From the NCBI GenBank assembly GCA_052327205.1, contig CM126220.1:51894001-51958000 (forward strand): a stretch of DNA of 64,000 bases, in the 5' to 3' direction. Source of the DNA: Somniosus microcephalus (lineage: Eukaryota). This document shows positions 3,490 through 63,665 of this stretch, in pieces (within the stretch, counting starts at the first letter, position 1; every line of letters begins with the position of its first letter). The position numbers were made by a program, and so were the translations under genes. The notes beneath the pieces were generated by a model, which saw only the letters and a list, made by a program, of their open reading frames with translations, was not told where the DNA came from and made no database searches.

Positions 3490-5200
3490 ACCATCGCTGA
3501 ATCCCCCACCATCAACATCCTGGGGGGGTCACCATTGACCAGAAACGTAGCTTAACTAGCCACATAAAAACTATGGCTACAAGGGCAGGTCAGATGCTGG
3601 GTGTTCTGCGGCAAGTGTCTCACCTTCTGACTCCCCAAAGCCTTTCCACCATCTACAAGGCACAAGTCAAGAGCGTCATGGAATAATCTCCACTTGCCTG
3701 GATGAGTGCAGCTCCAGCAACACTCAAGAAGCTCGACACCATCCAGGACAAAGCAGTCCGCTCGATTGACACCCCATCCACCACCTTAAACATTCACTTA
3801 CTCCACCACCGGCGTACCGTGGCTGCAGTGTGTACCATCTACAAGATGCACTGCAGCAACTCGCCAAGGCTTCTTCAACAGCACCTCCCAAACCCGCGAC
3901 CTCTACCACCTAGAAGGACAAGGGCAGCAGACCCATGGGAACACCATCACCACTAAGTTCTCCTCCAAGTCGCACACCATCCTGACTTGGAAATATATCG
4001 CCGTTCCTTCATCGTCGCTGGGTCAAAATCCTGGAACTCCCTCCCTAACTCCCTTCTGCAGGGCTCAGTACTAGGTCCCTTGCTTTTTGTGGTATATAGC
4101 AACGATCTTGACTTGAATATAGGGGGTATGATTAAGAAGTTTGCAGATGATACTAAAATCGGCTATGTGGTTGATACTGAAGAAGGAATCTGTAGACTGC
4201 AGGAAGATATCAATAAATTGGTCAGGTGGGCAGAACAGTGGCAAATGGAATTCAATCTGGAGAAGTGTGAGGTAATGCATTTGGGAAGGGCTAACAAGGA
4301 AAGGGAATATACATTAAATGGTAGGACACTGAGTAGTGTAGAGGAACAAAGGGACCTTGGAGTGCATGTCCACGGATCCCTGAAGGTAGCAGGCCAAGTA
4401 GATAAGGTGGTTAAGAAGGCATATGGAATGCTTGCCTTTTGTTAGATGTGGCATAGAATACAAGAGCAGGGGGGTTGTGTGTCAACTGTATAAAACACTA
4501 GTTAGGCCTCAGCTAGAGTACTGCGTGCAGTTCTGGTCACCACATTACAGGAAAGATGTGATTGCACTAGAGAGGGTACAGAGGAGATTTACAAGGATGT
4601 TGCCGGGAGTAGAGAATCTTAGCTATGAGGAAAGACTGGGTCTGTTTTCCTTGGAACAAAGGAGGCTGAGGGGAGACCTTATTGAGGTGTATAAAATTAT
4701 GAGGGGCATAGATAAAGTGGATAGGAAGGACCTATTTCCCTTAGCAGAGGGGTCAAAAACCAGGGGGCACAGATTTAAAGTAATTGGTGGAAGGTTTAGA
4801 GGGGATTTGAGGGGAAATTTCTTCACCCAGAGGGTTGTGGGGGTCTGGAACTCACTGCCTGAAAGGGTGGTAGAGGCAGGAACCCTAACCACATTTAAAA
4901 AGTACTTGGATGTGCACTTGGGATGCTCTAACCTGCAGGGCAACGGACCAAGAGCTGGGAAGTGGGATTAGGCTGGATAGCTCTTTGTTGGCCAGCGCGG
5001 ACACAATGGACCGAAATGGCCTCCTTCCGTGCTGTAACTTTCTATGATTCTATGATTCCTAACAGCACTGTGGGAGTACCTTCACCTCACGAACTGCAGC
5101 AGTTCAAGGCGGCTCACCACCACCTTCTCAAGGGTAATTAGGGATGGGCAATAAATGCTGGCTCTGCCAGTGACGTCCACATCCCATGAATGAATTTTAA
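3490..5200 (+). mobile_element. 3' fragment of a non-LTR LINE, split by a CR1 insertion at 4050-5057
   Basis: Encodes MSAAPATLKKLDTIQDKA..RRTVAAVCTIYKMH; near-identical copy at 56805-57417; host sequence CCTAAC..AGCACTGTGG resumes after the insert. Confidence 0.8.
4050..5057 (+). mobile_element. 5'-truncated CR1 LINE
   Basis: QGSVLGP, FADDTK and RPQLEYCVQFWSP motifs; (ATTCTATG)n tail; apparent CCTAAC duplication at 4044-4049 and 5058-5063. Confidence 0.92.
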
Positions 5201-5719
5201 AAGTCTTCAAATTGTCCCATTAGTACGTGCTACCAAATATGCTGGTGAAAAGGTTCAAGTCAAGTGTGCAGCCATGTGAACTTTAACTACTTTTTCTTGT
5301 TCGTGACATATTGATATTCACAAATATATTTCTTAAATGATTGCAACTAGGGCAGAAGTGAACAGTTCAGGCCTTTCTTTTTGTTCAAATGTCAGGCACT
5401 GGACTCTGCTCTTTTACCTCTTGGATAACAGCACAGATTCAGCTGAGCCCAAACCGAGTAGATAAAAACATATAGCACAGAATGACATTCAACCCATTAA
5501 ACTCACTCACTTCCATTAACCATGTATAAATCACTCTACTGTGGCCTGTAACCAAACTATTTATTCTGCCGAGTAAAGTTCTGCAGAAATACTGCTCAAT
5601 CCCCAAAGGCAATCAACCCAAACGCCACATTATTCAAACCTAACTGCTGCCATCCACAGGCAAACTCTCTCCTTTTCCTGCAGCAATGGAACCAGTGAGA
5701 ATTTGATTATCTTGGTGCA

Positions 5720-6330
5720 TATTTAACTCTATACCATTCAAAGCTGTTCCTAACCAGATATTTATTCAGTTCCTTCTGAAGAAGTTGATTGACCACATCA
5801 GCTGCTGTCAGTGGCACTCTGTTCTGCATATCCACTTAGATACATTGCTTCTCATCTCAGATCTTGCTCGAGGCTTATTAACTTAGAATCAATGTTCTCC
5901 ATTTCTACATTTTCGATGCATCTCAGGATTCTAAAGATCTGGATTATGCTCTCAAGACTCATTTTTTCTCCAATTAAAACAAGTTCAGCTCCACAGTCTC
6001 TCCTCAAAAGAATTCCGGTACATTAGTACATGAAATATTTCCAAACCCAGGACAAGTTTTCTTGGTTGCCTCTGTGTTGTTCACGAGTACTGTTAGTATC
6101 CCATAATATACATTCAAACATGTTCCCCCATGCAGATATCATGCTCACTGGCATAGTTTAGAGTCATGTATCACTTCTTTCTTTCAATACTAGAAATGGC
6201 TTTTGCTATCCTTGGGTACAGTTCCTGAATTGACAGTTCACAAAAATGTTATCCAAAATCTGGCCGATTTCCACTCTCATTTCTTTAAGGATTCTCGGTG
6301 GACCTGCATCTAGCCCTGGGTGCCTTGGAG
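5720..6330 (-). mobile_element. highly decayed CR1-like fragment
   Basis: Minus strand reads ...GAGGAGAGACTGTGGAGCTGAACTTGTTTT...ATCCAGATCTTTAGAATCCTGAG, resembling the EERL..L.LF / IQIFRIL segment of CR1 ORF2. Confidence 0.4.
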
Positions 6331-6489
6331 ACAATTGAGGTTGCTGTTCCTTCACAACTTACTTTACTGTGCCCACTATGCTGTTTGGATGAGAATTGTT
6401 AGATCTGGAATTTGGCTAGACTATTTATGAATTAAACCATGCCTTTATAGAGTGCTTTTATCACATTTCTCAGAAACATCCCAAAACAT

Positions 6490-6760
6490 CAATTTGCATT
6501 TACTGTATATAGAGCCTTTTGACATAGAAAAATGTCCAACGGTGCTTCACAAAAGCACAGTCAGATAAAAATCGATACTGAGCCAAAGGAGATATTGGGA
6601 GGGGTGAGCAAAAGCTTGGTCAAAGAGGTGGTGGGTTTTAAGGAGGGTCTTAAAGGAGAGAGAGGTGTAGGTTTATGGAGAGATTTCCAGAGCATAGGGC
6701 GTAGAGAGCTGAAGGCACAGTTGTGGGAGAGAGTGGAGGATGCACAAAAGGCCAAAGTTC
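6490..6760 (-). mobile_element. L2 LINE 3' end fragment
   Basis: Reverse complement of the L2 tail seen at 44545-45080 (CCTTTAAGACCCTCCTTAAAACC, TTTGACCAAGCTTTTG). Confidence 0.65.
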
Positions 6761-6764
6761 AAGG

Positions 6765-8915
6765 AAAGCACTTTGCATACAACAAGTTACTTTGAAGTAC
6801 AGTCACTGTTGTTATGTAGCTGAATGGAGGAGCCTTTTTGCACACAGTAAGGTATCACTGGTGTTGACTGAGGGAAGAATATTGGTCAGGATACCAGAAG
6901 AATTCCCAGCTCTGTTTCATATGTTACCATGAACATAAGAACATAAGAAATAGGAGCAGGAGTAGACCATTCGGCCCCTCGAGTCTGCTCCGCCATTCAA
7001 TGAGATCATGGCTGATCTTCTGCCTCAACTCCATTCACCGGCCCTATCGGCATATCCTTTGACGCCTTTACTAATCAGAAATCTATTGACTTCTGTTTTG
7101 AATATACCCAATGACTGAGCCTCCACAGCCCTCTGGGGTAGAGAATTCCAAAGATACACCACACTCTGTGAAATTTCTTCTCATCTCAGTCCTGAATGGC
7201 CTACCCTTTATCCAGAGGCTGTGGCCCCTGGTTCTAGACTCCCCAGCCAAGGGAAACATTCTCCCAGCATCCACCCTATCAAGCCCTGTAATAATTTTGT
7301 ATGCTTCAATGAGATCCCCTCTCATTCTTCTGAATTCAAGAGAATACAGGCCTAGTTTACTCAATCTCTTCTCATACGACAGTCCCGCCATCCCAGGAAT
7401 CAATCTTGTGAACCTTCGTTGCACTCCCTCTATGGCAAGTATATCCTTCCTTAGGTAAGGAGACCAAAATTGTACACACTACTCCAGGTGTGGTCTCACC
7501 AAGGCCCTATATAATTGGAGTAAGACTTCTTTACTCCTGTAATCAAATCCTCTTGTAATGAAGGCCAGCATACCATTTGCCTTCCTAACTTTCAGTGACT
7601 CATGTGCAAGGACACCCAGGTCCCTTTGAGCATCTGCATTCCCCAATCTTTCACCATTTAGGAAATACTCTGCCTTTCTGTTTTTTCTACCAAAATGGAT
7701 AACTTCACATTTATCCACATTATATTCTATCTGCCATGTTCTCGCCCACTCACTGAGCCTGTCGAGATCCCCTTGAAGCCTCTGCACATCCTCTTCACAA
7801 CTGACACCTAGCTTTGTATCATCAGCAAATTTGGAAATGTTACATTTAGTCCCCTCATCCAAATCATTGATATAGATTGTGAACAGCTGGGGCCCAAGCA
7901 CCGACCCTTGCGGTACCCCACTTGTCACAGCCTGCCATCCTAAAAAAGACCAGTTTATCCCTACTCTTTCTTTTCCGTCTGTTAACCAATTCTCAATCTA
8001 TGCTAGTATATTACCCCCAATTCCATGTGCCCTAATTTTGTTCACCAAACTCGTGTGGGACCTTATCGAATGCCTTCCGAAAATCCAGATACACCACATC
8101 TACCGGTTCTCCTTTGTCTACTCCACTAGTTACATCCTCAAAAAACTCCAATAGGTTTGTCAAACAGGATTTCCCTTTCATAAATCCATGTTGACTCTGC
8201 CCAATCTTACTATTAGTTTCTAAGTGCCCAGTTATTGCATCCTTTATAATAGATGCCAGCATTTTCCCAACTACTGATGTGAGGCTAACAGATCTGTAGT
8301 TCCCCGTTTTCTCTCTCTCTCCTTTCTTAAATAGCGGAGTTACATTTGCTATCCTCCAATCTGCAGGAACCGTTCCAGAATTTATAGAATTTTGGAAGAC
8401 GACAACCAATGCGTCCACTATCCCAATGGCCACCTCTTTCAAAACCCTAGGATGTAGGTCATCCGGTCCTTGGGATTTATCGACTTTTAGTCCCATTAAT
8501 TTTGCTAGTACTGTTTTTCTACTATTAATGATTTCTTTAAGTTCCTCATTCTCACCACACTCTTGGTTTTCTCGTATTTCTGGGAGGTTTTGTGTGTCTT
8601 CCTCTGTGAAGACAGAAACAAAGTATTTATTTAATTTCTCTGCCATTTCCTCATTCCCAATTATAAATTCTCCCGTCGCTGACTGTAAAGGGCCTACATT
8701 TACCTTCGCCAGTCTTTTCTTGTGTGGGATGACATCTCGAATACTTAACCCACCAGAACAAACTGACAAGGCATCGGTTTAACAGCTCATCCAACAGTGC
8801 AGCACTCCTTTAGTATCGCACTGAATCGTCAGGCTAGATTATGTCCCAAATCCTGAGGTGGGGCTTGTACCCCAACTTTCTGACTCAAGGGTGCAACCAA
8901 CTGAGCCAAATTGAC
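6765..8915 (-). mobile_element. DeuSINE/SacSINE1-like SINE in two pieces (6765-6931 and about 8722-8915), split by a CR1
   Basis: Both pieces match consecutive parts of the SINE at 47171-47620 (CCAACAGTGCAGCACTCC, CTGACTC). Confidence 0.6.
6932..8720 (-). mobile_element. 5'-truncated CR1 LINE with frameshifted ORF2 RT
   Basis: Minus ORFs contain [30 protein letters not shown] and FADDTK; tail repeat AACATAAG at 6932. Confidence 0.92.
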
Positions 8916-9062
8916 ACTGTAAGGACTTATATGAAGATCCATTTGACATTGTACTGATGCTCAGTATTTCTACCCAATCGCTTAAATCTGCAGTCTTTAA
9001 CACACCCCTATTGTGCATCCCTCTTCATGCGATCTAGAATCTGTCTCTCTTTTGCCCTTTCC

Positions 9063-10368
9063 TTGGAAAGCAGTGACAGGATCGGACAAAGTCAACATGG
9101 ATTTACAAAAGGTAAATCATGCTGGACTAATCTACTGGAATTTTTTGAGGATGTAACTGGTAAAATAGATAAGGGAGAACCAGTGGATGTGGTGTATTTG
9201 GACTTTCAGAAGGCTTTCGATAAGGTCCCGCATAAGAGATTAGCATGCAAAATTAAGGCACATGGGATTGGGGGCAAGGTATTGACTTGCATAGAGAACT
9301 GGTTGACAGATAGAAAGCAAAGAGTTGGAATAAATGGGTCGTTTTCCGAGTGGCAGGCAGTGACTAGTGGGGTACCGCAAGGATCGGTCCTAGGACCCCA
9401 GCTGTTCTCAATATATATTAATGATCTGGACAAGGGAACTGGATGTAATATCTCCAAATTTGCAGATGACACAAAGCTGGGTGGGAGGAGGATATCGTGA
9501 AACTCCAGTATGATTTGGACAGGTTAGGTGATTGGGCAGAAACATGGCAAATGCACTATAATGTGGATAAATGTGAGGTTATCCACTTTGGTGGCAAAAA
9601 CAGGAAGGCAGATTATTATTTGAATGCACTTCCCCTTCTCCCAATCTATTGCCAAAGAGACCTGGGTGTTCTTGTGCACCAGTCGCTGAAGGTAAGCATG
9701 CAGGTGCAGCAGGCGGTTAAGGCGGCAAATAGTATGTTGGCCTTCGTAGCAAGAGGGTTCGAGTACAGGAACAAAGATGTCTTGCTGCAGTTGTACAGGG
9801 CCTTGGTGAGACCGCACCTTGAGTATTGTGTGCAGTTTTGGTCGCCTTATCTGAGGAAGGATGTTCTTGCCATGGAAGGAGTGCAGCGAAGATTCACCAG
9901 GCTGATACCTGGGATGGCAGGAATGACGTATGAGGAGAGACTGTGTCGATTGGGCTTATACTCACTGGAGTTTAGAAGATTGAGAGGGGATCTCATCGAA
10001 ACCTATAAAATTCTGTCAGGCCTGGACAGACTAGATGCAGGATGTTCCCGATTGCCGGGGAGTCCAGAACCAGGGGTCATAGTATAAGGATAAGGGGTAA
10101 GACATTTAGGACTGAGATGAGGAGGAATTTCTTCACCCAGAGAGTGGTGAACCTGTGGAATTCTCTGCCACAGAGGGCAGTGGAGGCCAGTTCATTAAAT
10201 ATATTCAAGAAGGAGTTGGATATATTTCTTAAGGCTAAAGGAAACAAGGGATATGGGGAGAAGGCAAGGACAGGGTACTGAATTTGGATGATCAGCCATG
10301 ATCTCATTGAATGGCGGAGCAGGCTCGAAGGGCCGAATGGCCTACTCCTGCTCCTATCTTCTATGTTT
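9063..10368 (+). mobile_element. 5'-truncated CR1 LINE
   Basis: [40 protein letters not shown]; 3' end CCTACTCCTGCTCCTATCTTCTATGTTT. Confidence 0.93.
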
Positions 10369-10818: not shown

Positions 10819-11279
10819 GTGGCGACGAGTCGATTCGAACCTACCTCCAATTCTGTAGAAGGCCGATTCCACCAGTGCGGGCATCGACCATCTGGAGAGG
10901 ACTTGAACATCGCAGAGGAGGCTGTGGAGAGCTGGGCTTGGTTCCCCAGTCGAGACGATCCAGCACAGCGGGCTGGCAGCAGGTACGGCGCAGACCCTTC
11001 CCGGACGGCAGCGGCTGGAGCCGACCGACGGCACCGAAAAAGGCCGAGCAGCGTCGACGGGGTAAGAGAGAGGGTGAAGCGCACAGGGCGCAGCCGGGGT
11101 TGAAGACCGAGCGACGTCAACGAGAGAAGGGAAAACGCGCAGAGCGCGGCCGGGGTTTCAAGGGCTGAGCAGCGTCCGCGGGGGGAAGAAAGAAGCGCGG
11201 GAGACGCCATTTTGAGCCAGCGGAGAAGAAGGGAGAGCGCGGGAGACGCCATTTTTAGCCAGTCTAACCACACCCAAGG

Positions 11280-12611
11280 ATGCAGAAGAGTGGCAGTGTC
11301 ACAGGGTTCGACAATGAAGTCGAAGATTGGGCAACATATATAGAACATGTAGAAGTGTACTGCAAGACGAATGAAGTGCCAGATGCCAGGAAAGCACTGG
11401 TATTGTTGAATTCCATGGGTGCAAAAACGTACGGCTTACTGCGAAACCTAATAACCCCAGAGAAGCCAGTGGAAAAGGATTTTGAAAGCATAGTGGCAAT
11501 CCTACAGGACCACTTAAACCCCACACCGCTGCTGATAGCCGAAAGATTTAAGTTTCACAAAAGGAACCAGCATAAAGACGAAAGTAATGCTGAGTATTTA
11601 ACGGAACTGCGCAAACTATCGAAACACTGCCAGTTTGGAACGGGACTAGCAGATACTTTAAGGGACAAGTTTGTGTGTGGGCTTCAAAGTGAAGGAACCC
11701 AGAAACGGCTTCTATCAGAAAAGGATCTTACGCTGGACAAGGCTTTCAGCATGGCAGTATCACACGAAGCAACCGCACGGGGCGCTGCAGAGATACAACG
11801 GAGATCGCAAGAATATGGCACAAATGAAATGTCATATGGAGCAGTGAAGTGTTATCGCTGCGGCAAAACAACACACGACCACAAGGACTGTTGGTTCAAG
11901 GACCAAGTGTGCAGACAGTGTGGAAAAGTAGGACACAGAGCAAGTGTCTGCAGGTCGGGAAAGAAAACCAGCAGCAAGAAATCTCCACAGGAGAAGTACA
12001 AAAAGGTACATAAGGTGACGGAGAGTAGTTCAGGCGAACAGAAAAGTGATACAGACTCCGGAAGCAAGGAGCTGGGTTGTCTGAAACTACATCATGTAAT
12101 CAAAATGGAAGATCACCAAACTATCTGGGTCATGCTCAAGATAGACGGAGTCCAAGTGAAAATGGAATTGGACACAGGATCAGCCCTAACAGTCATAAAC
12201 CAAAGGGACTACAAGCGGCTATTCTCACATATACCCTTGAGAGATACAGAGATTGTCTTGAAGACGTACACGGGGCAAAAGGTCTACCCCAAAGGAAAAA
12301 TAAGGGTGAACGTGATATACAACAGCAAGGAAACACCAAAAATGGACATATATGTATTGCCAGATGGAGGACCGCCACTACTAGGGCGTGAATGGATCCG
12401 GAAGATACAGCTAGATTGGCATTCCATACAAGCACTGACTGTAGATGCCAAAAAGGATGACGACATCACACCGGGACGACTGTCAAAAATGCTAACTGAT
12501 GCACAAGAAGTGTTCCAGGAGGGACTCGGAACACTAAAAGGCATAACAGCAACGATCAAAATAGAGGAAAATGCAAGGCCAAAGTTTTTTTTTGTTGTTT
12601 TTTTTTTTTAA
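11280..12611 (+). pseudogene. Gag-protease region of outer Gypsy; pol continues in broken frames to 13379 and at 18282-19440
   Basis: LIAERFKFHKRNQ, LRDKFVCGL, CYRCGKTTHDHKDC, CRQCGKVGHRASVC, MELDTGSA; ends in an expanded T tract. Confidence 0.9.
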
Positions 12612-14016
12612 AAAGGCCAGACCGGTACCTTATGCGATCCGCCCAGCCGTCGAAGCAGAGCTGGAAGGTTTGGAACGTTCAGGAGTGCTATCCAAAGTGG
12701 ACTGGAGCGAGTGGGCTACACCCATCGTTCTTGTAATGAAGAGGTCGTTGAGTAATACGCCTGGGGAACCAAAGAAGGTTCGCATTTGTGGGGACTTTAA
12801 GGTGACAGTGAACCCAGTCCTTCACACTGTACAATATCCGCTTCGGCGGATTGAAGATATTTTTGCCTCGCTATCTGGAGGGAAACGCTTCACTAAGATT
12901 GATCTGGCCCAGGCGTACCTGCAAATGGAGGTAGAAGAAGCCTCGAAACAGTACTGCACGATCAACACTCATAAAAGGTCTCTACCAGTACAACCGGCTG
13001 GTGTTCGGGGTAGCATCAGCTCCGGCTATTTGGCAAAGGGCAATGGATCAAGTCCTGCAAGGGATTCCAGGGACCCAGTGTTATTTGGACGACATCCTGG
13101 TCACGGGCGAAAATGACAGTGATCACCTCGCCAACCTGGAGCAGGTGCTCACTAGATTGAAGGATTATGGGCTCCGAGCTAATCGCCACAAATGCGAGTT
13201 TTTCCAGAAGCAGATCTCGTATTGTTGCCACGTTATTGATGAAGAGGGGTTATATAAGTCCCCTGAAAAGATTGAGGCAGTAGTCAAGGCTCCAGCACCG
13301 GAAAATGTGTCACAACTGAGGTCGTTCCTCGGGTTGGTGAACTACTACCATAAGTTCTTGCCGAATTTGTCTACAGTTCTGTAGTGTATGTACCTTTAAG
13401 AGCCCCTGTGTACTGTAATACTGGTAGTGACCACTCGGGTATATAAGCCTGTATAGTGTCTTGTATCTTTTAGTTCACCTCCAGACTTTGTTCAGTAAAC
13501 ACCTGTTAAACCAACTCCTGCATTGGCAACGAATTGGAAACGGACTTACCTGCAATTCGGCAGCACCTCAAGATCGATTCCTCAGACGAAGGTCGAAGAA
13601 AAAAAACAAAAAACTGTGCTTTCACCAGCTAGCCGGGCTGGTGGCAGGTACTGCACTAATCCTTCCTGGGCGGCGGGCTGGGGCTCGATCGGGTGGCTCT
13701 GCAGCGGGGCCGAGCAGCGAGTCGGGAGGCGGAGGCAAACAGAGACGGAGGGTGGAGCACTCGGGAGACGGCTGGCGCTGCAAAGCAGGTCGGCCGGCGC
13801 TGCAAAGCAGGTCGGCCTTCGGACCAAGCAGAGGGAGGGAAAAATCCCAGAGTGTCCGGCGGGAACGAGTCTCCAACTATTAAAAATATGTGTAAATAAA
13901 AACCGCGGAGAACGGCGTTGTCAGCAGTGGCAGCGGTGGGAAAGCACGGGAGGCGCCATTTTTTCCTCGGCAGGGAAGAAAGGAAAGCGCGGGAGGCGCC
14001 ACTTTTGATTTTCAGG

Positions 14017-17000
14017 ATGCCTAAGACTGGCAATATTACTGCTTTCGATAGTAATATAGAGGATTGGACCACATATGTGGAAAGAGTGGAGGTATATTGC
14101 ACAGCGAATGAAGTAGAGGATGATAAAAAGGCATCGGTACTTCTAAATCTGATGGGCGCAAGGACATACGGGCTGTTACGAAACTTAATCACTCCAGCCA
14201 AACCGATGGACAAGAATTTTAAGGAGATTGTTGATACCCTACAGGAGCACTTAAACCCAACACCGCTGCTGATAGCGGAACGATTCAAATTCTTCAGGAG
14301 GAATCAGCACAAGAATGAAAGTAACGCTGATTACCTCACCGAATTAAGAAAGCTGTCAAAGCACTGCCAATTCGGGGCAGGACTGGCAGATTCTCTACGA
14401 GACAAATTCGTCTGCGGTCTCCGAAGTGAAGGAACACAGAAAAGGCTACTTTCTGAGAAAGATTTGACACTGGACGAGGCTTTCAGTGTGGCTGTATCAT
14501 ACGAAGCAGCAGCAAGAGGAGCTGCAGAGATACAGCAAAAGCCACAGGACTTCGGCACCCATGAAATGACACGGGGTTGAGAGAGATGTTATCGCTGCGG
14601 CAGATCCACCCATGACCAGAGGGACCGCTGGTTCAAGGACAAAGCATGCAGGCAATGCGGAAAGATGGGACACATTGCACGTGTATGCCGATCTGGAAAC
14701 AAAAAATCCACTGACAGAAAAAAAATCAATAAGGAAAAGTACAGAAAGGTACAAATGATGGCGGACAGTAGCTCCGAAGACCAGAAGAGCGATAGCGACT
14801 CCGGAAACAAGAAACTAAGCTGTCTCAAATTACATAATGTAATTGCCAAAGAAGATTACCAGACCATTTGGGTTACCCTCACGATAGCGGGGTCCCCAGT
14901 TAAAATGGAGCTAGATACAGGATCAGCTCTGACCGTCATAAGTCGACGGGATTACGAGCGGCTATTTCCGCATATACCTTTGAAAGACACATCCATTATC
15001 TTGAAGACATATACGGGGCAGAAAGTATACCCCAGAGGGAAAATAAGGGTGCCTGTTGTATACAACGGCAAGGAAATACAGAAGTTGTATTTATACGTTC
15101 TGCAAGATGATGGTCCACCGCTGTTGGGACGTGAATGGATCAGGAAGATACATTTAGACTGGCACTCCATTCAGGCACTGACGGTGACCAGTAAGAAAAA
15201 AAATGATGACGTCATACCTGAACGATTAAAAGACATCTTGGCCAACGCCAAAGAAGTGTTTCAACAAGAACTAGGAACCTTGAAAGGCGTCACCACCTCA
15301 ATAAAAGTGGAAGATGCGGCAATTCCCAAGTTTTTTTTAAGGCAAGACCGGTGTCATACGCAATTCGTCCAGCAGTCGAGGCAGAGCTGGAGAATTTGGA
15401 AAAGGCAGGCGTGTTATCCAAGGTAGACTGGAGCGAGTGGGCAACACCCATCGTCCCAGTCATGAAGAAAACGTTGAATAATGATAAATCTGAAGAACAG
15501 AGAAAAATTCGCATCTGTGGGGACTTCAAGGTGACTGTAAACCCGGTCCTTCACATGGTACAGTATCCTCTTCCGAGGATAGAAGATATTTTCGCCTCAC
15601 TATCCGGAGGGAAACGTTTCACCAAAATTGACTTGGCACAGGCATATCTACAGATGGAGGTTGAGGAGGCCTCTAAAAAGTATCTCACGATAAACACACA
15701 CAAAGGCCTGTACCAGTACAATCGACTGGTTTTCGGAGTAGCATCAGCTCCAGCTATCTGGCAAAGAGCTATGGAGCAAGTCCTGCAAGGGATTCCGGGG
15801 ACTCAATGCTACCTAGGCGACATCCTTGTAACAGGAGAAAACGACAACGAGCACCTTGCCAATTTGGAGCAGGTGCTCACGAGGCTGAGAGAACGGGGCC
15901 TACGAGCAAATCGTCCCAAGTGCGAATTTTTCCAGAAACAAATATCATATTGTGGCCATATAATTAACGAAGAAGGGTTGCATAAGTCACCTGAAAAAAT
16001 TGAAGCGGTCATAAAAGCCCCAGCACCTGAAAATGTCTCACAATTAAGGTCGTTCCTGGGATTGATAAATTACTATCTTAAATTTTTACCGAACTTGTCA
16101 GCTGTTCTGCACCCTCTTAACGCACTGCTACAAACGGGAGTAATTTGGAAATGGAGCGAAGACTGTAAACGTGCCTTCCATAAATGCAAAGGCTTAATCA
16201 CGTCCAAGGAAGTGTTGGCTCATTACAACCCATCACTGCCAATCAGACTGGCGTGCGATGCATCCCCTTACGGCGTAGGAGCGGTATTATCGCACAGATT
16301 CCCTGATGGCTCGGAGCGGCCAATAGCTTTTGCGTCACGCTCATTGAACTCAGCTGAGTGTAACTATGCCCAGATCGACAGGGAAGCACTCAGCCTGGTA
16401 TGGGGAGTGAAGAAATTCAACCATTACCTACACGGACAAAAATTTACCTTGTTGACTGACCATCAACCCCTCGTCTCCATATTCAACCCTAAAAAGGGCG
16501 TTCCCATTATGACAGCGCAAAGGCTACAGAGGTGGTCCCTTTTCCTAGGGGCACACCAATATGACATAGAATACAAAGGATCAAAACAGCATGGGAATGC
16601 TGACGGTTTATCACGCCTACCGTTGCCAACGGTAGAAGAGGCACCTACAGTGGACCCAGTGGAGATGTTCCACTCAACCATAGTGGAATGTCTACCAGTA
16701 ACAAATTCTACCATTGAAAAGGAAACGAGAAATGACCCGACTCTCTCACGAGGCTACAATTTAACGGTGAAGGGATGGCCAGCACATGGCGAACCACTGT
16801 TGCCAGCATTCTCGCAAAGAAGAGAACAGCTGTCAGTGTGCCGAGGAACCTTGATGTGTGGATCCAGAGTGGTGATTCCACCCAAACTCCAGGATAAAGT
16901 GCTAAAGGAGCTTCACGAGGGGCATCTGGGTGGAGTGAAAATGAAGAACCTAGCCAGAGCGTTTGTGTGGTGGCCAGGTATCGATGGAGACATCGAAGAA

Positions 17001-18005
17001 ATGACCAAGAGCTGTCTAGGATGCCAGAAGGTCCAAAACGCCCCACCACAAGCCCCTCTACATCCATGGGAGTGGCCCTCATCTCCATGGCAAAGGGTAC
17101 ATATCGACTTTGCTGGTCCATTTATGGACTCAATGTTCTTAATTGCGGTTGATGCACACTCCAAGTGGCCGGAGGTAATAAAGATGTCCTCCACCACCAC
17201 GGAAAAAACCATCACAGTATTAAGGACCATATTTGCCAGGAATGGGCTGCCAGAACAGATCTGTTCTGATAATGGACCGCAATTTGTGTCCGAAGAATTC
17301 AGGAAGTTCTTAAAAAAACAATGGGGTTAAGCACTACACGTCCGCCCCATACCATCCCACCACCAATGGATTAGCTGAAAGGTTTGTCCAGACCTTCAAG
17401 AAGGCCATAAAGGCCATGGGTAATGAAGACATAAATCTACAACATAAGGTAGATAACTTCTTGTTTGCGTACAGGAATGCAACACATGTGGTTACAAACC
17501 AAACTCCCGCCATGATGTTTTTCAATAGAAGACTAAGATCCCGGCTGGATTTGATCAAGCCAAACATCAGAAGGGACGTAGAGAACTGGCAATTTCAAGG
17601 CATGAATGAAAGGCCAACTAGAACCTTCCAGATAGGTCAACAAGTTTGGCCCGGGACTACCGTACCAAGAAATGGCAGCCTGGAACTATTTGCACACGAC
17701 TAGGACAGCTGATGTATACCGTGGACATTGGAGAAAGCATAATAAGGCGCCATGCTGCCCAGATCATAGAGTCATCCGAAAAGGGACAACCTACACCACA
17801 ACTCTATACGCCTAATGATGAAGCAGAGATACCCATAGTATCTACCTCCGATCCGGTGATACTGGAACCAGATGAACCCGACACTGGCATTCAAGCCGAA
17901 TCGACCTTGCCAAAAGAACCTACTACACCACCGAAAACTACTACACCACCGAGGCGTTATCCGGACCGAGTCAGGAAGCCTCCAGAGAGACTGACTTATA
18001 ATTGA
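14017..18005 (+). pseudogene. gag-pol of inner Gypsy in several broken ORFs
   Basis: MPKTG gag start, LDTGS, RT with YLGD (YLDD mutated), CDASPYG RNase H, HEGH..CLGC, HIDFAGP/SDNGPQF/GLAERF integrase; frameshifts near 14580, 15335, 17315 and 17645. Confidence 0.92.
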
Positions 18006-18103
18006 TTAACTGCAGCAAATGTGCAGATTATTGTTCTTGTAAACATGTTAATTAATGATTACTTATAAAATGTTATGTACTAATTATCTAAAAGGGGAGG
18101 AAT

Positions 18104-18276
18104 TGTAGTGTATGTACCTTTAAAGAGCCCGTGTACTGTAATACCGGTAGTGACCACTCGGGTATATAAGCCTGTTTGGGTCTTGTATCTTTTAGTTCAC
18201 CTCCAGACTTTGTTCAGTAAACACCTGTTAAACCAACTCCTGAATTCCGTGTCTCCATTAACACACGGATACAACA
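18104..18276 (+). repeat. 3' LTR of inner Gypsy (173 bp)
   Basis: TGTAGTGTATGTACC...GGATACAACA; the 5' copy lacks about 30 bp near its 3' end. Confidence 0.93.
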
Positions 18277-19532
18277 AGTTCTACACCCACTGAACACCCT
18301 ACTGCAAACGGGGGTACCATGGAAGTGGAATGACGAATGTAAACGAGCTTTCCAGAAGTGCAAAGAATTGATCACATCAAAAGAGGTGTTGGCTCATTTC
18401 AACCCAGCACTACCAATTCAGCTGGCGTGTGATGCATCACCCTATGGCATTGGATGTCGCACAAATTCCCGGACGGCTCAGTAGCCTTTGCGTCTCGGTC
18501 ACTAACCTCAGCCGAGCGTAACTACGCCCAGATTGACAGGGAGGGCCTCAGCCTAGTGTGGGGAGTGAAAAAGTTCAACCACTATCTGCACAGGCAGAAG
18601 TTCACCTTGCTGACTGACCACCAACCACTTGTCTCCATCTTTAACCCAAAGAAGGGCGTTCCGGTGATGACTGCGCAACGGCTACAAAGATGGTCCCTTT
18701 TTCTAGGGGCGCACCAATATGATATCGAGTATAAGGGTACGAAACAGCATGGAAACGCTGATGGGCTATCACGCCTGCCACTACCTACTGCGGAGGAAGC
18801 ACCAGCAGTGGATCCTGTCGAAATATTTCATTCGACTATAATTGAATGCTTGCCAGTAACTAACGCTGTTATAGAGAAGGAGACCTGAAAAAAGCAGTAA
18901 GGGCCATGTGCAATGACGACATTCCACTGCAGCATAAGGTGGACAATTTCCTGTTAGCCTACAGAAATGCGACACATACAGTCACCAACCAGACCCCGGC
19001 CATGATGTTCTTTAACCGAAGGTTGAGATCTCGTCTGGATTTGCTCAAACCAAATGTACAAAGAGATGTTGAGAATAAGCAATTCCAGCACATCAATGAG
19101 AAGCCGACAAGGAGCTTCAATGTAGGGCAACCAGTCTTGGCTCGCGACTACCGAACAGAGAAATGGCAACCAGGAATGATATGCACACGGCAGGGGCCAC
19201 TAATGTACACCGTGGATGTTGGGGAGAACATTGTGAGACGCCATGTCGACCAGATCCTAGAGTCACAGGAAAGAGTCAACCCCAGGTCTCGCGTACCTGG
19301 TGATGAACCCGACATACCGGTAACATCTACCCCAGAAACAGTAGCATCGGAAGCTGATGAACCAACCGACGACAAGAGCAAGACACTCAGGAAAGGCGCT
19401 ATCCAGAAAGGATCAGGAAGCCGCCCCAAAGACTGAATTTATAAATGGACTATTTGCTGTTAATGTTGCATGTTAAAAGTGTTAATTGTTAAATGAATGT
19501 TATGGTACTGTTAATCTAAAAAGGGGAGGAAT

Positions 19533-19745: not shown

Positions 19746-22429
19746 GGAGAGAATTCCACAGGTTCACCACTCTCTGGGTGAAGAAATTCCTCCTCATCTC
19801 AGTCCTAAATGGCTACCCCTTATCCTTAGACTGTGACCCCTGGTTCTGGACTCCCCCGCCATCGGGAACATCCTTCCTGCATCTAGTCGGTCTAGTCCTG
19901 TTAGAATTTTATAAGTTTCAATGAGATCCCCTCTCACTCTTCTAAACTCCAGCAAATATAAGCCCAATCGACCCAATCTCTCCTCATATGTCATTCCTGC
20001 CATCCCAGGTATCAGTCTGGTGAATCTTCACTGCACTCTCTCCATGGCAAGAACATCCTTCCTCAGATAAGGCGACCAAAACTGCACACAATACTCAAGG
20101 TGTGGTCTCACCAAGGCCCTGTACAACTGCAGCAAGACATCCTTGCTCCTGTACTCGAATCCTCTCGCTATGAAGGCCAACATACCATTTGTCTTCTTAA
20201 CCGCCTGCTGCACCTGCATGCTTACCTTCAGCGACTGGTGCACAAGGACACCCAGGTCTCGTTGCACTTCCCCTTTTCCCAATCTATTGCCGTTCAGATA
20301 ATAATCTGCCTTCCTGTTTTTACCACCAAAGTGGATAACCTCGCATTTATCCACATTATACTGCATCTGTCATGCATTTGCCCAATCACCCAAACTGTCC
20401 AAATCATACTGGAGTTTCTCTGCATCCTCTTCACAGCACACCCACCCAGCTTTGTGTCGACTGCAAACTTGGAGATATCACATCTAGTTCCTTCGTCTAG
20501 GTCATTAATATATATTGTGAATAGCTGGGGTCCAAGGACCAATCCCTGCGGTACCTCACTCGTCACTGCCACTGGGAAAAAGACCCGTTTATTCCAACTC
20601 TTTGCTTCCTGTCGGCCAACTAGTTCTCTATCCAAGTCAGTACCTTACCCCCAATCCCATGTGCTTTAACTTTGCACGCTAATCTCTTATGCGGGACCTT
20701 ATCGAAAGCCTTCTGAAAGTCCAAATACACCACATCCACTGGTTCTCCCTTATCTATTCTACCAGTCACATCCTCAAAAAATTCCAGTAGATTAGTCAAG
20801 CATGATTTACCTTTTGAAAATCCATGTTGACTTTGTCCGATCCTGCCACTGCTTTCCAAGTGCTCTGCTATTACATCTTTTATAATGGACTCTAGCATTT
20901 TCCCCACTACCGATGTCAGGCTTACTGGTCTATAATTCCCCATTTTCTCTCTACCACCTTTTTTAAATAGTGGGGTTACATTAGCTACCCTCCAATCCAT
21001 GGGAACTGTTCCAGAGTCTATAGAATTTTGGAAGATGACCAGCAATGCATCTACTATTTCTCGGGCCACTTCCTTAAGTACCCTGGGATGTAGATGATCA
21101 GGCCCTAGGGATTTATCAGCCTTCAATCCCGTCAATTTCCCAAACACCATTTCCCTACAAATATTGATTTCTTTCAGTTCCTCCCTCTCATTACACCCTA
21201 TGTTCCCCGACATCTCTGGGAGGTTATTTGTGCCCTCCTTTGTGAAGACAGAACCAAAGTATGTATTTAATTGGTCTGCCATTTCTTTGTTCCCCATTAT
21301 AAATTCCCCTGATTCTGACTGCAAGGGACCTACGCTTGACTTCACCAATCTTTTTCTCTTCACATATCTATAGAAGCTTTTACAGTCAGTTTTTAGGTTC
21401 CCTGCAAGCTTACTCTCATACTCTATTTTTCCCCCCTCTTAATTAATCCCTTTGTCCTCCTTTGCTGAATCCTAAACTGCTCCCAATCCTCAGGTTTGCT
21501 GCTTTTTCTGGATATTTTATATATATTTTATATTAAAAGGAATTATGGCCAATTTCAACCTGGTTTCTGCTGGAGTTTTCCCAGTATTCCGAAAGCTCAG
21601 AGCCTCTGCTACTCTTTGGGTTCTACCACAGGAGTCCGTTAATCGAGAGCGAGAGAGACTGTCTTCTGCCCTGCCACGGAGCTTCTTTTCCTCTCTCTCT
21701 TTTGCACTTATAGGACGGCCTGTTACTCCCACTCTCTCTTCTGCCTCCGACAGGGGAGCTTCTGTACACTCTCTTTTGCCCCCACTCAGAATCTTGTGTT
21801 ACTGGAAGGCTGTACTTGTCTGGTTCCTATTCCCAGAGCTATCAATATTAAAATGTTAGGTGTGATCAAAAGGAGCTGAATTTATTTTTAAGAGTGAAAT
21901 GCATTGAATTTTGACAGTTATTGTTGCTGTAACCAGCCAAGGGCTGATACTGACCCCAATCACTGGTCATTCCTGCTCCACCTTTCAGCCTGTTTGTCTA
22001 TGCTCTCCCAAACCCACTTCATCCTGTTACCTCTCCCCATCCTTAACAAATCTTTTAAAAACCTCCCTTTTTGACTGTGTCTGAAGAATCCCTTGCACTC
22101 TCTCTTTCACAGTGCATGGGGTATCCTGCACTCACTCTGTCCCTGTCCCATTGTACCTGAGTTCGCTCTCACTGTACCTGGGGTATTCTGCACTCACTCT
22201 ATCCCCGTGCTCTCGGACTGTGCCTCGGGTATTCTGCTCTGGGCATGCCTGGGGTATCCTCCCTCTTTCCAACTGTGCTTGGGATGTCCAGCCCAGCTCC
22301 AACTGGTAACGAGTGCCAAAATGTTCCTCCACTAAAAAATGCCATACTCAATGTGCAACATCTCAGAGCTTAGGCCAAAGACCTACCTGAAGTGGAGGGC
22401 ACTATCCTGTCTTGGGGTCCGGAGATTTT

Positions 22430-23462
22430 TGGGGGGGGGGGGGGGGGGGGGAGGGGGGCACTGACCTGTCTCAGTGTGGGGGGGAGGGGGGCACTGACCT
22501 GTCTCAGTGTGGGGGGGAGGGGGGGCACTGACCTGTCTCAGTGTGGGGGGGAGGGGGGCACTGACCTGTCTCAGTGTGGGGGGGAGGGGGGCACTGACCT
22601 GTCTCAGTGTGGGGGGGAGGGGGGCACTGACCTGTCTCAGTGTGGGGGGGAGGGGGGCACTGACCTGTCTCAGTGTGGGGGGGAGGGGGGCACTGACCTG
22701 TCTCAGTGTGGGGGGGAGGGGGGCACTGACCTGTCTCAGTGTGGGGGGGAGGGGGGCACTGACCTGTCTCAGTGTGGGGGGGAGGGGGGCACTGACCTGT
22801 CTCAGTGTGGGGGGGGAGGGGGGCACTGACCTGTCTCAGTGTGGGGGGGAGGGGGGCACTGACCTGTCTCAGTGTGGGGGGGAGGGGGGCACTGACCTGT
22901 CTCAGTGTGGGGGGGAGGGGGGCACTGACCTGTCTCAGTGTGGGGGGGAGGGGGGCACTGACCTGTCTCAGTGTGGGGGGGAGGGGGGCACTGACCTGTC
23001 TCAGTGTGGGGGGGAGGGGGGCACTGACCTGTCTCAGTGTGGGGGGGAGGGGGGCACTGACCTGTCTCAGTGTGGGGGTGTCTCAGAGTGGGGGTCAGCA
23101 CTGACCTGTCTCAGTCTTGTGTGTTGGGGGGGGGGGGGGCTCACTGACCTGTCTCAGTCTTGGGGGGGGGGGGGGGGCACTGACCTGTCTCAGTCTGGGG
23201 GGGGGCACTGACCTGTCTCAGTCTGGGGGGTGGAGGAGGCACTGACGTGTCTCAGTCTGGGGGTCCCGGGGGGGCAGACACTGACCTGTCTCAGTGTGGG
23301 GGTCCCGGGGGGGCAGACACTGACCTGTCTCAGTGTGGGGGTCCCGGGGGGGGGGGGGGGGCACTGACCTGTCTCAGTGTGGGGGTCCCGGAGGGGGGGG
23401 GGGGGCACTGACCTGTCTCAGTGTGGGGGTCCCGGGGGGGGGTGGACACTGACCTGTCTCAG
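22430..23462. repeat. G-rich minisatellite, core unit CACTGACCTGTCTCAGTGTGGGGGGGAGGGGGG (33 bp), about 29 core copies
   Basis: 19 near-perfect 33/34-bp units (22459-23075) plus about 10 variable-length units up to the SPRING1 exon boundary. Confidence 0.97.
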
Positions 23463-23564
23463 CGTGCTGCTCAGGAAGTAGATGAGCGAGAGGCCAAACA
23501 CCACGGCGAGGACCCAGCGCTTCCTGAGCACCTTGCGCCACACCATAGAGATGCACTGCACCAT
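23454..23564 (-). CDS. SPRING1: SPRING1 (C12orf49) coding exon 1, N-terminal transmembrane anchor
   Basis: Translates [37 protein letters not shown] (37 codons), matching recalled human [37 protein letters not shown]; ends at CAG|GTCAGT; head-to-head with RNFT2. Not listed in this frame in the ORF track. Confidence 0.95.
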
Positions 23565-23880
23565 CGAGTCCGCGCTACCGGCCCCAAGTCATCGCATTCC
23601 CCGGCCAGTTACGCCACGACTGAAAATCGCGCTGGGCTCGATTCGGCCCAGCCGCCGCCTCTCCAGCGCGGGTCGGAAAACAACGGCCAACCTCCCAGCG
23701 GAAGTCCCGCCCCTCTACCGCACTCCAATTGGACCGTTATCCTCGCTGACCGCTCGGTCCTCGATGTTCTTTGGAGCAGCCAACTGCCAATTAAACGTCC
23801 AGCGCTCGCTTTACGTGCCGTGACGTGACGCGTCAAGGCGTGCCAAAGGTCAAAGAGCTCAAAACAAAGGGCTGTCAGTC
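23565..23880. promoter_or_regulatory. CpG-rich bidirectional promoter of SPRING1/RNFT2
   Basis: High CpG density; ETS CGGAAGT 23699-23705, GC box CCCGCCC 23706-23712, CCAATTGG 23725-23732, CCAAT 23787-23791, CRE-like TGACGTGACGCGTCA 23821-23835. Confidence 0.75.
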
Positions 23881-24374
23881 ATGGTGACTGTAGCTGGGGG
23901 GAATGAATGGGGGTGAGATTGCAGCACTGGGGGGGTTTAATCTTAATCCCAAACTGCGCGGCGTGCACTACACTTAAAACGAAGCAATGTTATGAGCTAG
24001 TGCAAAGTGAACTGCATGTAGTGTTAAGTGTTAAACCTGGCGTTTCCGCGAGTGCTGTTAAAATGTAGTCGTCAGGTTATTATTGGCTGCAGGTAATGCT
24101 TAATTCCATTGTGGTATTAACGGCCTCAATCGGACAAGCGCAGCAAACCTGCTATTTGATAAGTTCTTAAGAGAATGTCTTAACATAAGGCAGAAGGATT
24201 CAATATTATGTTCTCTGTGATATGTAATTTCTGAAACGGCTCCATTTACTATTCGTCATATAGGAAAAAAATGTTGATTCGTGTTTCATTTTGTTGTTTT
24301 AATATCTATGTCAGTAAAACAACTTTTCATTGCATTTAGATTTTTTTTTCCAATTTAAGACGGACTGGAAGAAG

Positions 24375-24421
24375 ATGCAGAGAAGGCATAGTAGCAATGC
24401 TGATAACATCCCACCAGAAAG
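24375..24421 (+). CDS. RNFT2: RNFT2 first confident coding exon (MQRRHSSNADNIPPER)
   Basis: Matches recalled human MQRRHSSNTDNIPPER; acceptor TTTAAG ending 24359; donor AG|GTAAGT. Confidence 0.92.
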
Positions 24422-24896
24422 GTAAGTGTCTGCAGTGATTTGTGCAACCTGTTGGTTAAGTGTCAAGGCTGTCAATTTTGGAAATATGTAAAAAAAAATC
24501 GAACACTTGTACATTGCCTTATTGTGGGGATTTATTTTTTAATTAATTTCCTATGTTTAGAAATGGCAGTTGAAAAATGGAATCTTCTGTAACCCAGCTG
24601 TTTATTAAACTTCAGCTTTATTTAAATCATTTTGGTTTAAGCATAGCTCACTTCTCATCACTTAAGAAAAGATGTAATAGCATTGGAATAAGTTCACAAA
24701 AGGTCAGCATGCATTATATTGTGTTTTTTGGATTTCTTTGTGTTCCCTTTTAATGTCAGTTTGAACATTTTTAACTACTAACATCCAAGCCCCGATATTT
24801 ACAGGGGGTGATATTTGATACAGGTATAGTTACATTTTTAGGCACAACTTTTAAATGCAGTGTAGTTTGTGAACTTGGCTCATTTTCTCTTTTTAG

Positions 24897-25375
24897 GACA
24901 AGGAGTCAGACAGTTGGTTCAGAGACCAGTGTGGATGAGAACGGTGTTTTTGAAGGACTCAAACCTGAAAGCCCATCACCTCAGCAGATGTTTTCTGGTT
25001 TGACAGGTCTGCAATCAGGCCCAGTAACTGCCACTTCATTCCAGTCTGGTCTAGTTTTGGGGTCTTCTCTCAGTGCATCAGTTGGAAGTGGAGATGTGTT
25101 TATTCAGATGACCCCACAGGAAGAGGGAGCCATTCGCACAGAGAATATGCAGTACCATCATCGCCATCGGCATCATCATTATCACCACAACCACCATCGT
25201 TCCTCCCTGTTGCACGTTTCTGGTGATCGCCATGGAAATACAGAAGATGGCAGCGATGAACCTGGAACTCCTGCCCCAGCACTTTCAGAACTCAAGGCTG
25301 CAGTCACCTGGCTTCAGAAGGGGCTTCCTTTTATCTTAATATTGCTGGCTAAAGTTTGCTTTCAACACAAGCTTG
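24897..25375 (+). CDS. RNFT2: RNFT2 coding exon 2 (Ser-rich, His tract, first TM helix)
   Basis: SVDENGVFEGLK, GDVFIQM, His tract, PGTPAPALSELKA..WLQKGLPFILILLAKVCFQHKLG; TTTTAG acceptor and GTACGG donor; phases fit. Confidence 0.96.
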
Positions 25376-27189
25376 GTACGGGCATGTAGATGCTTCATTT
25401 AAAATTGTATTTACCAGTAACAGTTTGCCTGAGATGCATGTTGTTTGTTGACTGTTACTGGATTATTTATTACACTACGACAAATCTTGTACTTTCTCCT
25501 TGGCATCCCAGAACAAATTCTTTGGAGTCTCTGTGCTCACAGCAAGAAACCGGGTCAGTTGAGACATCTGTTCTTACTTACAGTTGTCTACATCTGCACG
25601 CTGTTACGGCAGCGAATACATCAACAATGTAACTTTAAGGGCAGAAGGTGATCTGCTTAAAGTCCTCAAAATACGTCTAACCAATTTTAAAAAAATAATA
25701 ATAATCTGCCCTTGTATGTAAACATTTTTATTCTGTTGGTCTGGAAGCTCATAATTTGTTATAAATTATTTCGTTAAGGAGGCTCTTTTCAATACATCCT
25801 AGTCCCCTTGAAATAATAGGAGTGTACATGCCTGTATCGTTGTGGATGCATTTTTTGTGCCCTCCTGTGCTACTGTTGTTAGTAAATTGTATCGTTTGAA
25901 CCTATTTTAAAATTTGATGAGATTAGTACCAGTGCATTTTAAGATAGCTGTCCTTTTGACTCCAGGCTTTACTTTTTAATTCAGGCTTGACATTAAGGTT
26001 TATTTAAAGGAGACATATCTCATTGAATTTTACCTTGATTCTAAATTTTGTGAAAGAAGATACCTATATAGTTATTTGTGTGTGTGTGTGCCAGTTTCCA
26101 GTTAATATTCCTGCATAAAAATCAAAGGCTGACATTTTACCCAGAACTCCGCCCAACGTGGCACTGGGTCAGTTCTGCTCCTGTGACATGAGGAGGATAG
26201 TGGGGAGCACTCCTTATTACTGGAACTTTATAGTTCTGCACAAAATGGCTGATTCCTGGCTGCCTCTAACTAACCAGCAGTTTTTTTTTAAAAACATATA
26301 AACAGGGGATGGCCAACTTATTTGGACATAACTTTTCTTTCCCCCTCTATTTAGCATTCAGATTATCTGAGTTTAAAAGTTCCAGTTTAGCATCCAACAA
26401 GCTTGGGCGTGCTCTATAAATCACATTAAATTGACCAGTTGTGACGAAAGGTCACTGACCTGAAACGTTAACTCTGTTTCTCTCTCCACAGATGCTGCCT
26501 GACCTGCTGAGTATTTCCTGTTTTTATATTACATTGACTAGAACTGTTTTATTTGTGATCTGTATAATGGAGCTGTGCCTTTTTATATTTTGGCTTTGTT
26601 CAGATTTATTTTTCAAATCTGAGTGGATACACAAAAACACGTAGTTTTAAGGTCAGACTGTTCTTGTGTGATTTGTCAGAGGTCCTGTTTTTAAAAAAAA
26701 AAACACTTATTTTTATTGCTTTTAATTGTTCAGGTCATAGCAATATTGAATTGAGCAACTATCACCTAGGAAACTTGTTCTGGCAGCGTTGATATCACTA
26801 ACACATTGCAGCTATGTTTGGGAGTGTTCCCAGTGATGCTAATTACAAGTAAGCCATAACTATCCAGTGCAAGAGAAGGATCACGATCATCCTGATTAGG
26901 AGGCCTAAGTGCACTTTGCCATTCTAAAATATTGCCAAGTAAGACACCTGGGGCTAAGCATTGCTCAGAGTGCCCTGAATATAATGGATATGTAATTAAT
27001 CCTGATTCATATGATACTTGTGTGAATGACACTGGATCCAGATGTTATTTGTTAATTCAGCTGTCTTGTGACGGTGTCCTGTTAAAACATTGATTTTTAA
27101 CTTCTAACATTTTTTGGCAGGGATAATCCGCTGACACCTTTCTAAATCTCCGGTGACACTACATACAATCTTGTTTTTTTTTAATGCAG

Positions 27190-63289: not shown

Positions 63290-63547
63290 CTACAGGTGTT
63301 TTTTTCTGATGAGCATGAGGATCGCTGTGACATGGACGAGCGTGCAAATGGTGTAAAGGTGCCTGTTGCTGACGTTAGTATGGATTCTGTTCCTGTCGGC
63401 GGCTTTCCTCTGTGCCCTTTCTTGCAAATGGTCCCCTATAAGCCTCAACCTTCTGGCGACCTCCTGCACTTCGGAGCAGCGTTCCCCCGGCCGGCCGGAG
63501 GCGCACACACACACCGTCCTGTCCACATCGTCTGCTTGCTGACACAT
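63290..63547 (-). CDS. HRK: BH3-only pro-apoptotic protein, HRK/harakiri (DP5) orthologue, 85 aa, single coding exon
   Basis: MC..VCVCASGRPG resembles recalled human MCPC..VCACSAGRLG; BH3 VARRLRLIGDHLQ (LxxxGD); C-terminal hydrophobic helix followed by RKKHL; convergent with RNFT2 as in mammals. Confidence 0.88.
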   Translation of the reverse strand: MCQQADDVDRTVCVCASGRPGERCSEVQEVARRLRLIGDHLQERAQRKAADRNRIHTNVSNRHLYTICTLVHVTAILMLIRKKHL

Positions 63548-63604
63548 TGCTAACCAACTGCAGCCACCGAAAACCTCAAAAGTCAGTGCCTCTGTCGTTA
63601 GGAG

Positions 63605-63665
63605 CTCTATTATTAATTAAAGCTGCCTCCAAGTGTCACATGGCGTTCCGAGGGATTTACATCAT
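63605..63665 (-). promoter_or_regulatory. HRK proximal promoter (ATF site, E-box, TATA-like box)
   Basis: Minus strand TGATGTAA (63657-63664), CATGTG (63637-63642) and TTAATTAATAATA (63608-63620), 60-120 nt upstream of the ATG. Confidence 0.7.

Follow-up and report, generated by a model that had tools for sequence, protein, structure and literature searches.

At the first exon-intron boundary of the shark gene SPRING1 (C12orf49), we found a tandem array in which the authentic exon-1 splice donor is the first of 29 copies of the same junction. The array lies on the minus strand of a 64,000-nucleotide stretch of cartilaginous-fish DNA (hereafter the window), and it is in our judgement probably a locally born minisatellite whose first unit spans the exon-intron boundary and which is most likely tolerated rather than selected, with the upstream donor winning and leakage into the downstream copies being minor.

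The identity of the gene and the position of the junction were established by protein homology. A minus-strand frame of 37 codons, with its ATG at 23564 and a phase-0 end at 23454, matches SPRING1 of Scyliorhinus torazame (97%) and Mustelus asterias (95%), and its translation is identical to the aligned entries from Heptranchias, Chiloscyllium and Hemiscyllium; the gene name comes from this protein search and a cluster match, the 37-aa exon having no Pfam coverage. When full-length shark SPRING1 was searched against the window by tblastn, residues 1-37 alone were matched, ending exactly at 23454, and in all 19 cartilaginous-fish SPRING1 proteins of our alignment (one cluster being represented by the 15 of its 23 members that are listed) Q37 is followed by E38 without interruption. 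Hence, homology places the exon-1/intron-1 junction at 23454/23453, where the first-pass annotation had also put it as the terminal copy of the array. The same search found no later SPRING1 exon anywhere in the 64-kb window, and therefore intron 1 passes the window edge and is longer than 23 kb, given a correct assembly. The remainder of the intron within the window (1-22380, minus strand) is rich in retroelements, with reverse transcriptase, protease or integrase domains in six of the seven intron-1 open reading frames scanned, in keeping with the earlier description of a long intron filled with transposable elements. Antisense to SPRING1, at 11268-19436 on the plus strand, are at least two and probably three nested or tandem LTR-retrotransposon remnants with gag-protease, reverse transcriptase, RNase H and integrase, one of them with a 702-aa open pol stretch; several LINE-type reverse transcriptase fragments occur in both orientations at 3957-10087 and 19962-21438, and large inverted pairs are formed by two regions, ~7.1-8.8 kb on the minus strand with 9.0-10.1 kb on the plus strand. 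Five isoform models of shark and ray SPRING1 (P0015, P0020, P0024, P0028 and P0030) diverge after residue 178, which reflects an alternative last exon and not the exon-1 junction.

A scan with the 16-mer around the junction (-9 to +7), allowing at most one mismatch, returned 29 copies on the minus strand from 23462 to 22459 and none in 100 dinucleotide shuffles of the window. The first copy is the authentic donor (23447-23462), and the estimate of about 28 extra copies made in the first-pass annotation was confirmed, 28 being found over 1 kb. Its further claim that every unit carries an identical junction holds for 27 of these 28, whereas the copy at 23240-23255 has a C at -1 and reads CAC|GT at 23247/23246. 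The units are arranged head to tail and are of minisatellite size (28 units of 28-44 nt; Tandem Repeats Finder, period 33, score 1310), and two blocks can be told apart by their unit lengths. In the heterogeneous 5' block (23062-23453), ten units of 41, 44, 44, 39, 39, 34, 28, 36, 43 and 44 nt, in this order, each end in an exon-derived tail of ~13 nt, and the first of them contains a C9 run (23434-23442). The homogeneous 3' block (22466-23061) comprises 18 units, and the proposed 33-nt unit is accurate for 16 of all 28 units but not for the two of 34 nt in this block nor as a description of the first ten. On the plus strand the 3' block presents G7/G6 runs that are predicted to be prone to G-quadruplex formation, and it contains no CpG across 22601-23000. 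The array ends with the last donor copy, a C21 run and a degenerate remnant unit (together 22391-22465); the donor of the remnant reads AG|GA (22407/22406), and its local alignment score of 35 compares with a maximum of 24 in 484 intron pieces of the same length.

The composition of the units points to the gene itself as their source. Over 13 nt the unit ends differ from the conserved end of the exon by one synonymous change (12 matches), and this exon end codes for TLRQ in 18 of the 19 cartilaginous-fish proteins; because the unit tail matches a conserved exon end, the repeat was copied from the gene and not inserted into it. Neither blastn nor a 16-mer scan placed the unit anywhere in the window outside the array, and an origin from a dispersed repeat or mobile element was rejected at this scale, as blastn matches outside the array were at most 28 nt long and lay at G-run positions. 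At 26453-26462 (minus strand), in an intron of the neighbouring gene RNFT2, 10 nt of the donor core recur in isolation, probably by chance. The variants are polar, with the diversity concentrated in the 5' block, a uniform 3' block and the remnant unit at the far end, which suggests an old diversification and a recent expansion; the remnant itself is either what is left of a decayed array end or a chance likeness that seeded the first duplication. In a comparison of 23453-23466 with the unit ends, ACG (Thr) in the exon corresponds to ACA or AGA in the copies; the change of CpG to CpA suggests deamination in a founder copy, and the exon ACG to copy ACA difference turns a G-U pair of the stem described below into an A-U pair. 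The mean G4Hunter score is 1.39 in the array, where 42% of windows reach 1.5 or more compared with 0.8% elsewhere, and G-quadruplex proneness has been tied to the instability of human GC-rich minisatellites (PMC3486850). Some elasmobranch genomes are described as abundant in simple tandem repeats (10.1101/2025.06.08.657570).

Translation of the read-through shows what use of a downstream copy would entail. The first in-frame stop is a TGA at 23420-23418 (codon 49, 145 nt from the ATG), as had been noticed for the 41-nt first unit, and it lies upstream of all 28 downstream donors. Use of any of these, or of a further donor at 22386 just past the array, would include this stop, and a premature stop ahead of the later junctions is one of the features of poison (NMD-coupled) splicing. 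However, a start-proximal zone of ~21-100 codons, varying by gene, is described as inactive for NMD (PMC12776119), and with the stop so close to the ATG, in a region of frequently weak decay, leaked transcripts would not surely be degraded; 'poison' is here more likely to mean non-productive than degraded. By simple arithmetic, the length of the C9 run modulo 3 sets the frame of the donor-2 transcript. The suggestion that one extra C would remove the stop is correct for donor 2 but for no other donor, because the 44-nt second unit returns the same TGA to frame. A coding role for the 11-codon unit was rejected on account of the upstream stop and of the absence of an insert after Q37 in all 19 aligned relatives, the latter being weak evidence since the relatives may themselves be without the array; behind that stop the 11-codon period read as VSAPLPPTLRQ has little meaning. 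The 192-aa repeat frame, used as a protein query, brought up one unnamed match of 38% among 8000 scored candidates, an uninformative result. Exon 1 extended by 11 read-through residues gave 12 matches from 17 candidates, all confined to at most 77% of the query, which is the share of the exon.

Which of the donors could bind U1 was estimated from duplex energies, a rough stand-in for a trained splice-site score that was computed with the sequence of the U1 5' end. The real donor is predicted to pair at -9.9 kcal/mol and the 27 exact copies at -8.8 to -9.9, compared with -2.7 for the CAC|GT variant and -11.8 for the site at 22386, so that the copies are, as proposed, potential U1 sites with pairing close to that of the real donor. 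Of the 1473 GT sites in the more distal part of the intron, 15 pair at least as well as a typical copy, and three of eight provisional RNFT2 donors outscore it; none of these eight (the placement of 57699 being doubtful) has donor copies next to it, and therefore the array is not a generic feature of the window. Each copy is predicted to form a 6-bp stem over +2 to +7 (-7.7 kcal/mol), as the first-pass annotation stated, but the authentic donor is at least equally stable with its 7-bp stem (-8.5 kcal/mol), and over four array folds the stability did not exceed that of shuffled sequences (z -0.28 to -0.99). The predicted cost of opening the donor is 6.4 kcal/mol for the real site, 4.3-10.3 for the copies and 5.3 (median) for 15 background donor-like sites; when the fold is limited to a short co-transcriptional context, most of the 33-nt copies are predicted to open more readily, at 3.4 versus 6.4 kcal/mol for the real donor, and so could bind U1. 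The stem was consequently rejected as a silencer of the copies, since that of the real donor is as stable and the opening costs overlap; it follows that structure does not pick out the first donor and that position must. A known structured RNA family was likewise rejected, as an Rfam scan of 21500-24500 gave no match, the single hit being at chance level (E 0.38; 17.7 bits, where the cut-off is 80) and located outside the array.

We propose that a segment of ~40 nt, made up of the last ~13 exon bases and the C-rich start of the intron, was duplicated in tandem and diversified into variants of 28-44 nt, of which one 33-nt variant expanded recently, slippage or unequal exchange probably being favoured by the small hairpin as well as by the G-runs. 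Nearly all mRNA would then be spliced from the donor that lies furthest upstream and closest to the cap, helped by cap-assisted recruitment of U1 to a first-exon donor, which has been discussed for flies (PMC4889658), while the second and perhaps the third copy would be used at a low rate to give transcripts stopping at codon 49. Such leakage would yield the N-terminal anchor and nothing of the protein beyond it, SPRING being a membrane protein anchored at its N-terminal end. The precedents for this choice of donor are all mammalian. In F7 minigenes none but the most upstream of identical donors was used, even against stronger downstream ones, and across 50 constructs identical downstream donors were functional but unused, splicing being diverted only by a perfect consensus site; the same report mentions opposite results with duplicated donors by another group (PMC1557585).

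Among the alternatives, the one that survives best is that copy number or the C9 run alters the share of productive SPRING1 mRNA, either through donors that bring in the stop or through additional U1 that assists or impedes the real donor. We regard it as unlikely, although it has points in its favour: the full donor is kept in 27 of 28 copies with pairing near that of the real site, every downstream copy includes the stop, and there are precedents in ABCA7, where one retained unit of an intronic repeat causes a frameshift and a premature stop at a low level (PMC5954066), in PAH, where U1 bound downstream can enhance an upstream donor (PMC5933811), and in the 9537 splicing-associated tandem repeats reported genome-wide in humans (PMC10078293). 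Against it, recent expansion already predicts the identity of the copies, identical copies in F7 give no competition, and the stop is start-proximal, so that decay may be weak. An effect of copy number on splicing is possible by analogy with PAH and ABCA7, yet the idea of a decoy or poison device that tunes a regulator of the SREBP pathway, the role described for SPRING (PMC10457316), is unsupported as a purposeful arrangement, given that identical donors in F7 stay unused. Its fullest version would be a heritable dial on SPRING1/SREBP lipid signalling, in which copy number sets the leakage, the C9 run switches the donor-2 product and the site at 22387/22386 rescues transcripts recursively, and this we hold to be quite improbable. 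If it were true, the donor-2 product would be either a stub of 48 aa that consists of the anchor alone and may avoid decay, or an in-frame protein with 14 additional residues, and a single recursive step at the AG|GT (22387/22386) would excise the complete array.

An effect at the DNA level, independent of splicing, seems similarly improbable to us; here the G-rich array, flanking the CpG island of SPRING1 and RNFT2, would alter initiation or early elongation through G-quadruplexes or through zinc-finger proteins that bind GC boxes. The array does abut the island (CpG observed/expected 0.59-1.19 over 23401-24400), contains 13 non-overlapping four-run G motifs and holds 19 GGGAGGG in 1 kb versus 22 in the other 63 kb, and motifs of the GGGAGGG type bind MAZ/SP/KLF-type factors, but such counts are a trivial result of repetition. 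By its CpG content and the RNFT2 match, the island presumably serves as a bidirectional promoter for SPRING1 (minus strand) and RNFT2 (plus strand). The short CpG-island interval between the SPRING1 ATG and RNFT2 (23561-24345) contains a GC box, CCAAT-like boxes and a TGACG/CACGT cluster near 23812-23835, which we take to be CRE/UPRE-like, and is likely to be the shared promoter. RNFT2 stands head to head with SPRING1 and runs from ~24339 to 61321, with its first coding match at 24339-24422, its best match in Pristiophorus japonicus (96%) and a His-rich stretch at 25110-25200 (plus strand) in a large coding exon. Downstream of it and on the opposite strand, a frame resembling the BH3 protein Harakiri (HRK) is found at ~63290-63616 (Pfam PF15196, E 7e-07); the order SPRING1, RNFT2, Harakiri is presumably the same in mammals.

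The strong CAG|GTAGGT donor that the first-pass annotation noted past the array is indeed present at 22387/22386, although it is not exceptional. Together with the pyrimidine tract ahead of it (22381-22399, minus strand; 10 of 12 positions before the CAG are pyrimidines), it has the shape of a recursive splice site in a duplex-energy and motif scan, and the real donor could in principle be spliced to the AG at 22387, excising the whole array (1067 nt) and rebuilding a stronger donor for the rest of the intron, a reading to which we give little credence. Recursive sites are described as AG|GT motifs that rebuild strong donors (PMC6110456) and as commoner in first introns (PMC13105047), and the site resembles them in its AG|GT with pyrimidine tract, its long first intron and its re-created donor, whose predicted U1 pairing exceeds that of the real one. 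Unlike them, it is without a branch-point motif, no yTnAy being found within 100 nt upstream. Furthermore, AGs occur at -17, -22 and -26, the tract can be explained as a remnant of the C-rich unit, an equal tract precedes two of 19 other YAG|GTRRG sites in the window (1125 minus, 7455 plus), and the motif was noticed post hoc.

Telescripting, by which the cluster of U1 sites would guard a long, retroelement-rich intron against premature polyadenylation, is scarcely credible. The intron contains 16 AATAAA/ATTAAA hexamers (14 when counted without overlaps), and the first intronic AATAAA (21881-21886, minus strand, by hexamer scan) lies 579 nt past the last donor copy, that is, less than 1 kb from this copy and more than 1 kb from the real donor, the range of U1 telescripting being given as ~500 nt in fly and ~1000 nt in mammals (PMC4889658). 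However, 15 of the 16 hexamers are separated from the last copy by more than 1 kb, and the protection of an intron of more than 23 kb, as had been suggested, fails on this distance. It was moreover the array itself that displaced the nearest signal from the real donor by 988 nt, the distance without it being ~580 nt, and the intron already contains, scattered along its length, 15 other donor-like sites that are no weaker. An assembly artefact, in which the array or most of its length would be absent from the animal, is just as hard to believe, for although long C/G homopolymers, single-base 33/34 variants and the C21 end are error-prone features, the window contains no N, and several distinct unit classes marked by common substitutions, together with a degenerate remnant, resemble evolution rather than sequencing stutter; the array is real, though its exact copy number and the lengths of its C-runs may be in error.

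The tolerated boundary minisatellite that we favour has known relatives. A class of minisatellites whose first unit lies across an exon-intron boundary has been described for F7, IFI6, CBS, LMNB2 and PDGF (PMC1557585), and the shark array shares the features of F7, IFI6 and CBS, namely units of minisatellite size, the authentic junction (placed by homology) in the first unit and the donor reiterated in the intron. Repeats at exon-intron boundaries have also been surveyed in human duplicated genes (PMC2812944). Among the titles and abstract openings of the literature matches listed, which cover the literature in part, we found no report of such an array in a shark, at a first exon or at this locus. 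Like the shark array, the 37-bp VNTR in human F7 intron 7 has its first unit over the boundary and presents identical donors every 30-40 nt. F7, however, has 5-9 units at an internal exon, each with four exon bases, and no structure that would mask its donors was found, while the shark array has 29 copies at a first exon with ~13 exon bases and a predicted hairpin on every donor. The architecture of IFI6 (6-16) intron 2, CBS intron 13, LMNB2 and PDGF is as in shark SPRING1, and the 25 pseudo-sites of IFI6 and the 15-20 units of CBS come near the 28 of the shark. In these four genes the use of donors has been measured, with two extra sites used in IFI6 and CBS and none in LMNB2 and PDGF (as cited in PMC1557585), whereas donor use in the shark array is a prediction.

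The VNTR in ABCA7 intron 18, a C-rich repeat of 25 bp that starts at the donor (PMC5954066), is comparable in that the array is C-rich from the donor onwards and the next unit gives a premature stop. It differs in that it is polymorphic and a dependence of splicing on its length has been demonstrated (PMC5954066), while the stop in the shark is start-proximal and the copy number, called variable in the first-pass annotation, comes from a single haplotype, its polymorphism being putative. The minisatellites CEB1 and CEB25 (PMC3486850) are likewise built of GC-rich units with G-runs on one strand and form G-quadruplexes; in the shark array quadruplex formation and instability are predicted only. 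Most likely, the present array extends to cartilaginous fish and to a first exon a class so far described in a handful of human genes. If its length changed SPRING1 output, it would amount to a tunable allele in lipid control. With 29 donors at a spacing of 28-44 nt, one weakened variant among them and a stronger donor at the end, it offers a clean natural substrate for studying the unsettled choice among many identical 5' splice sites.
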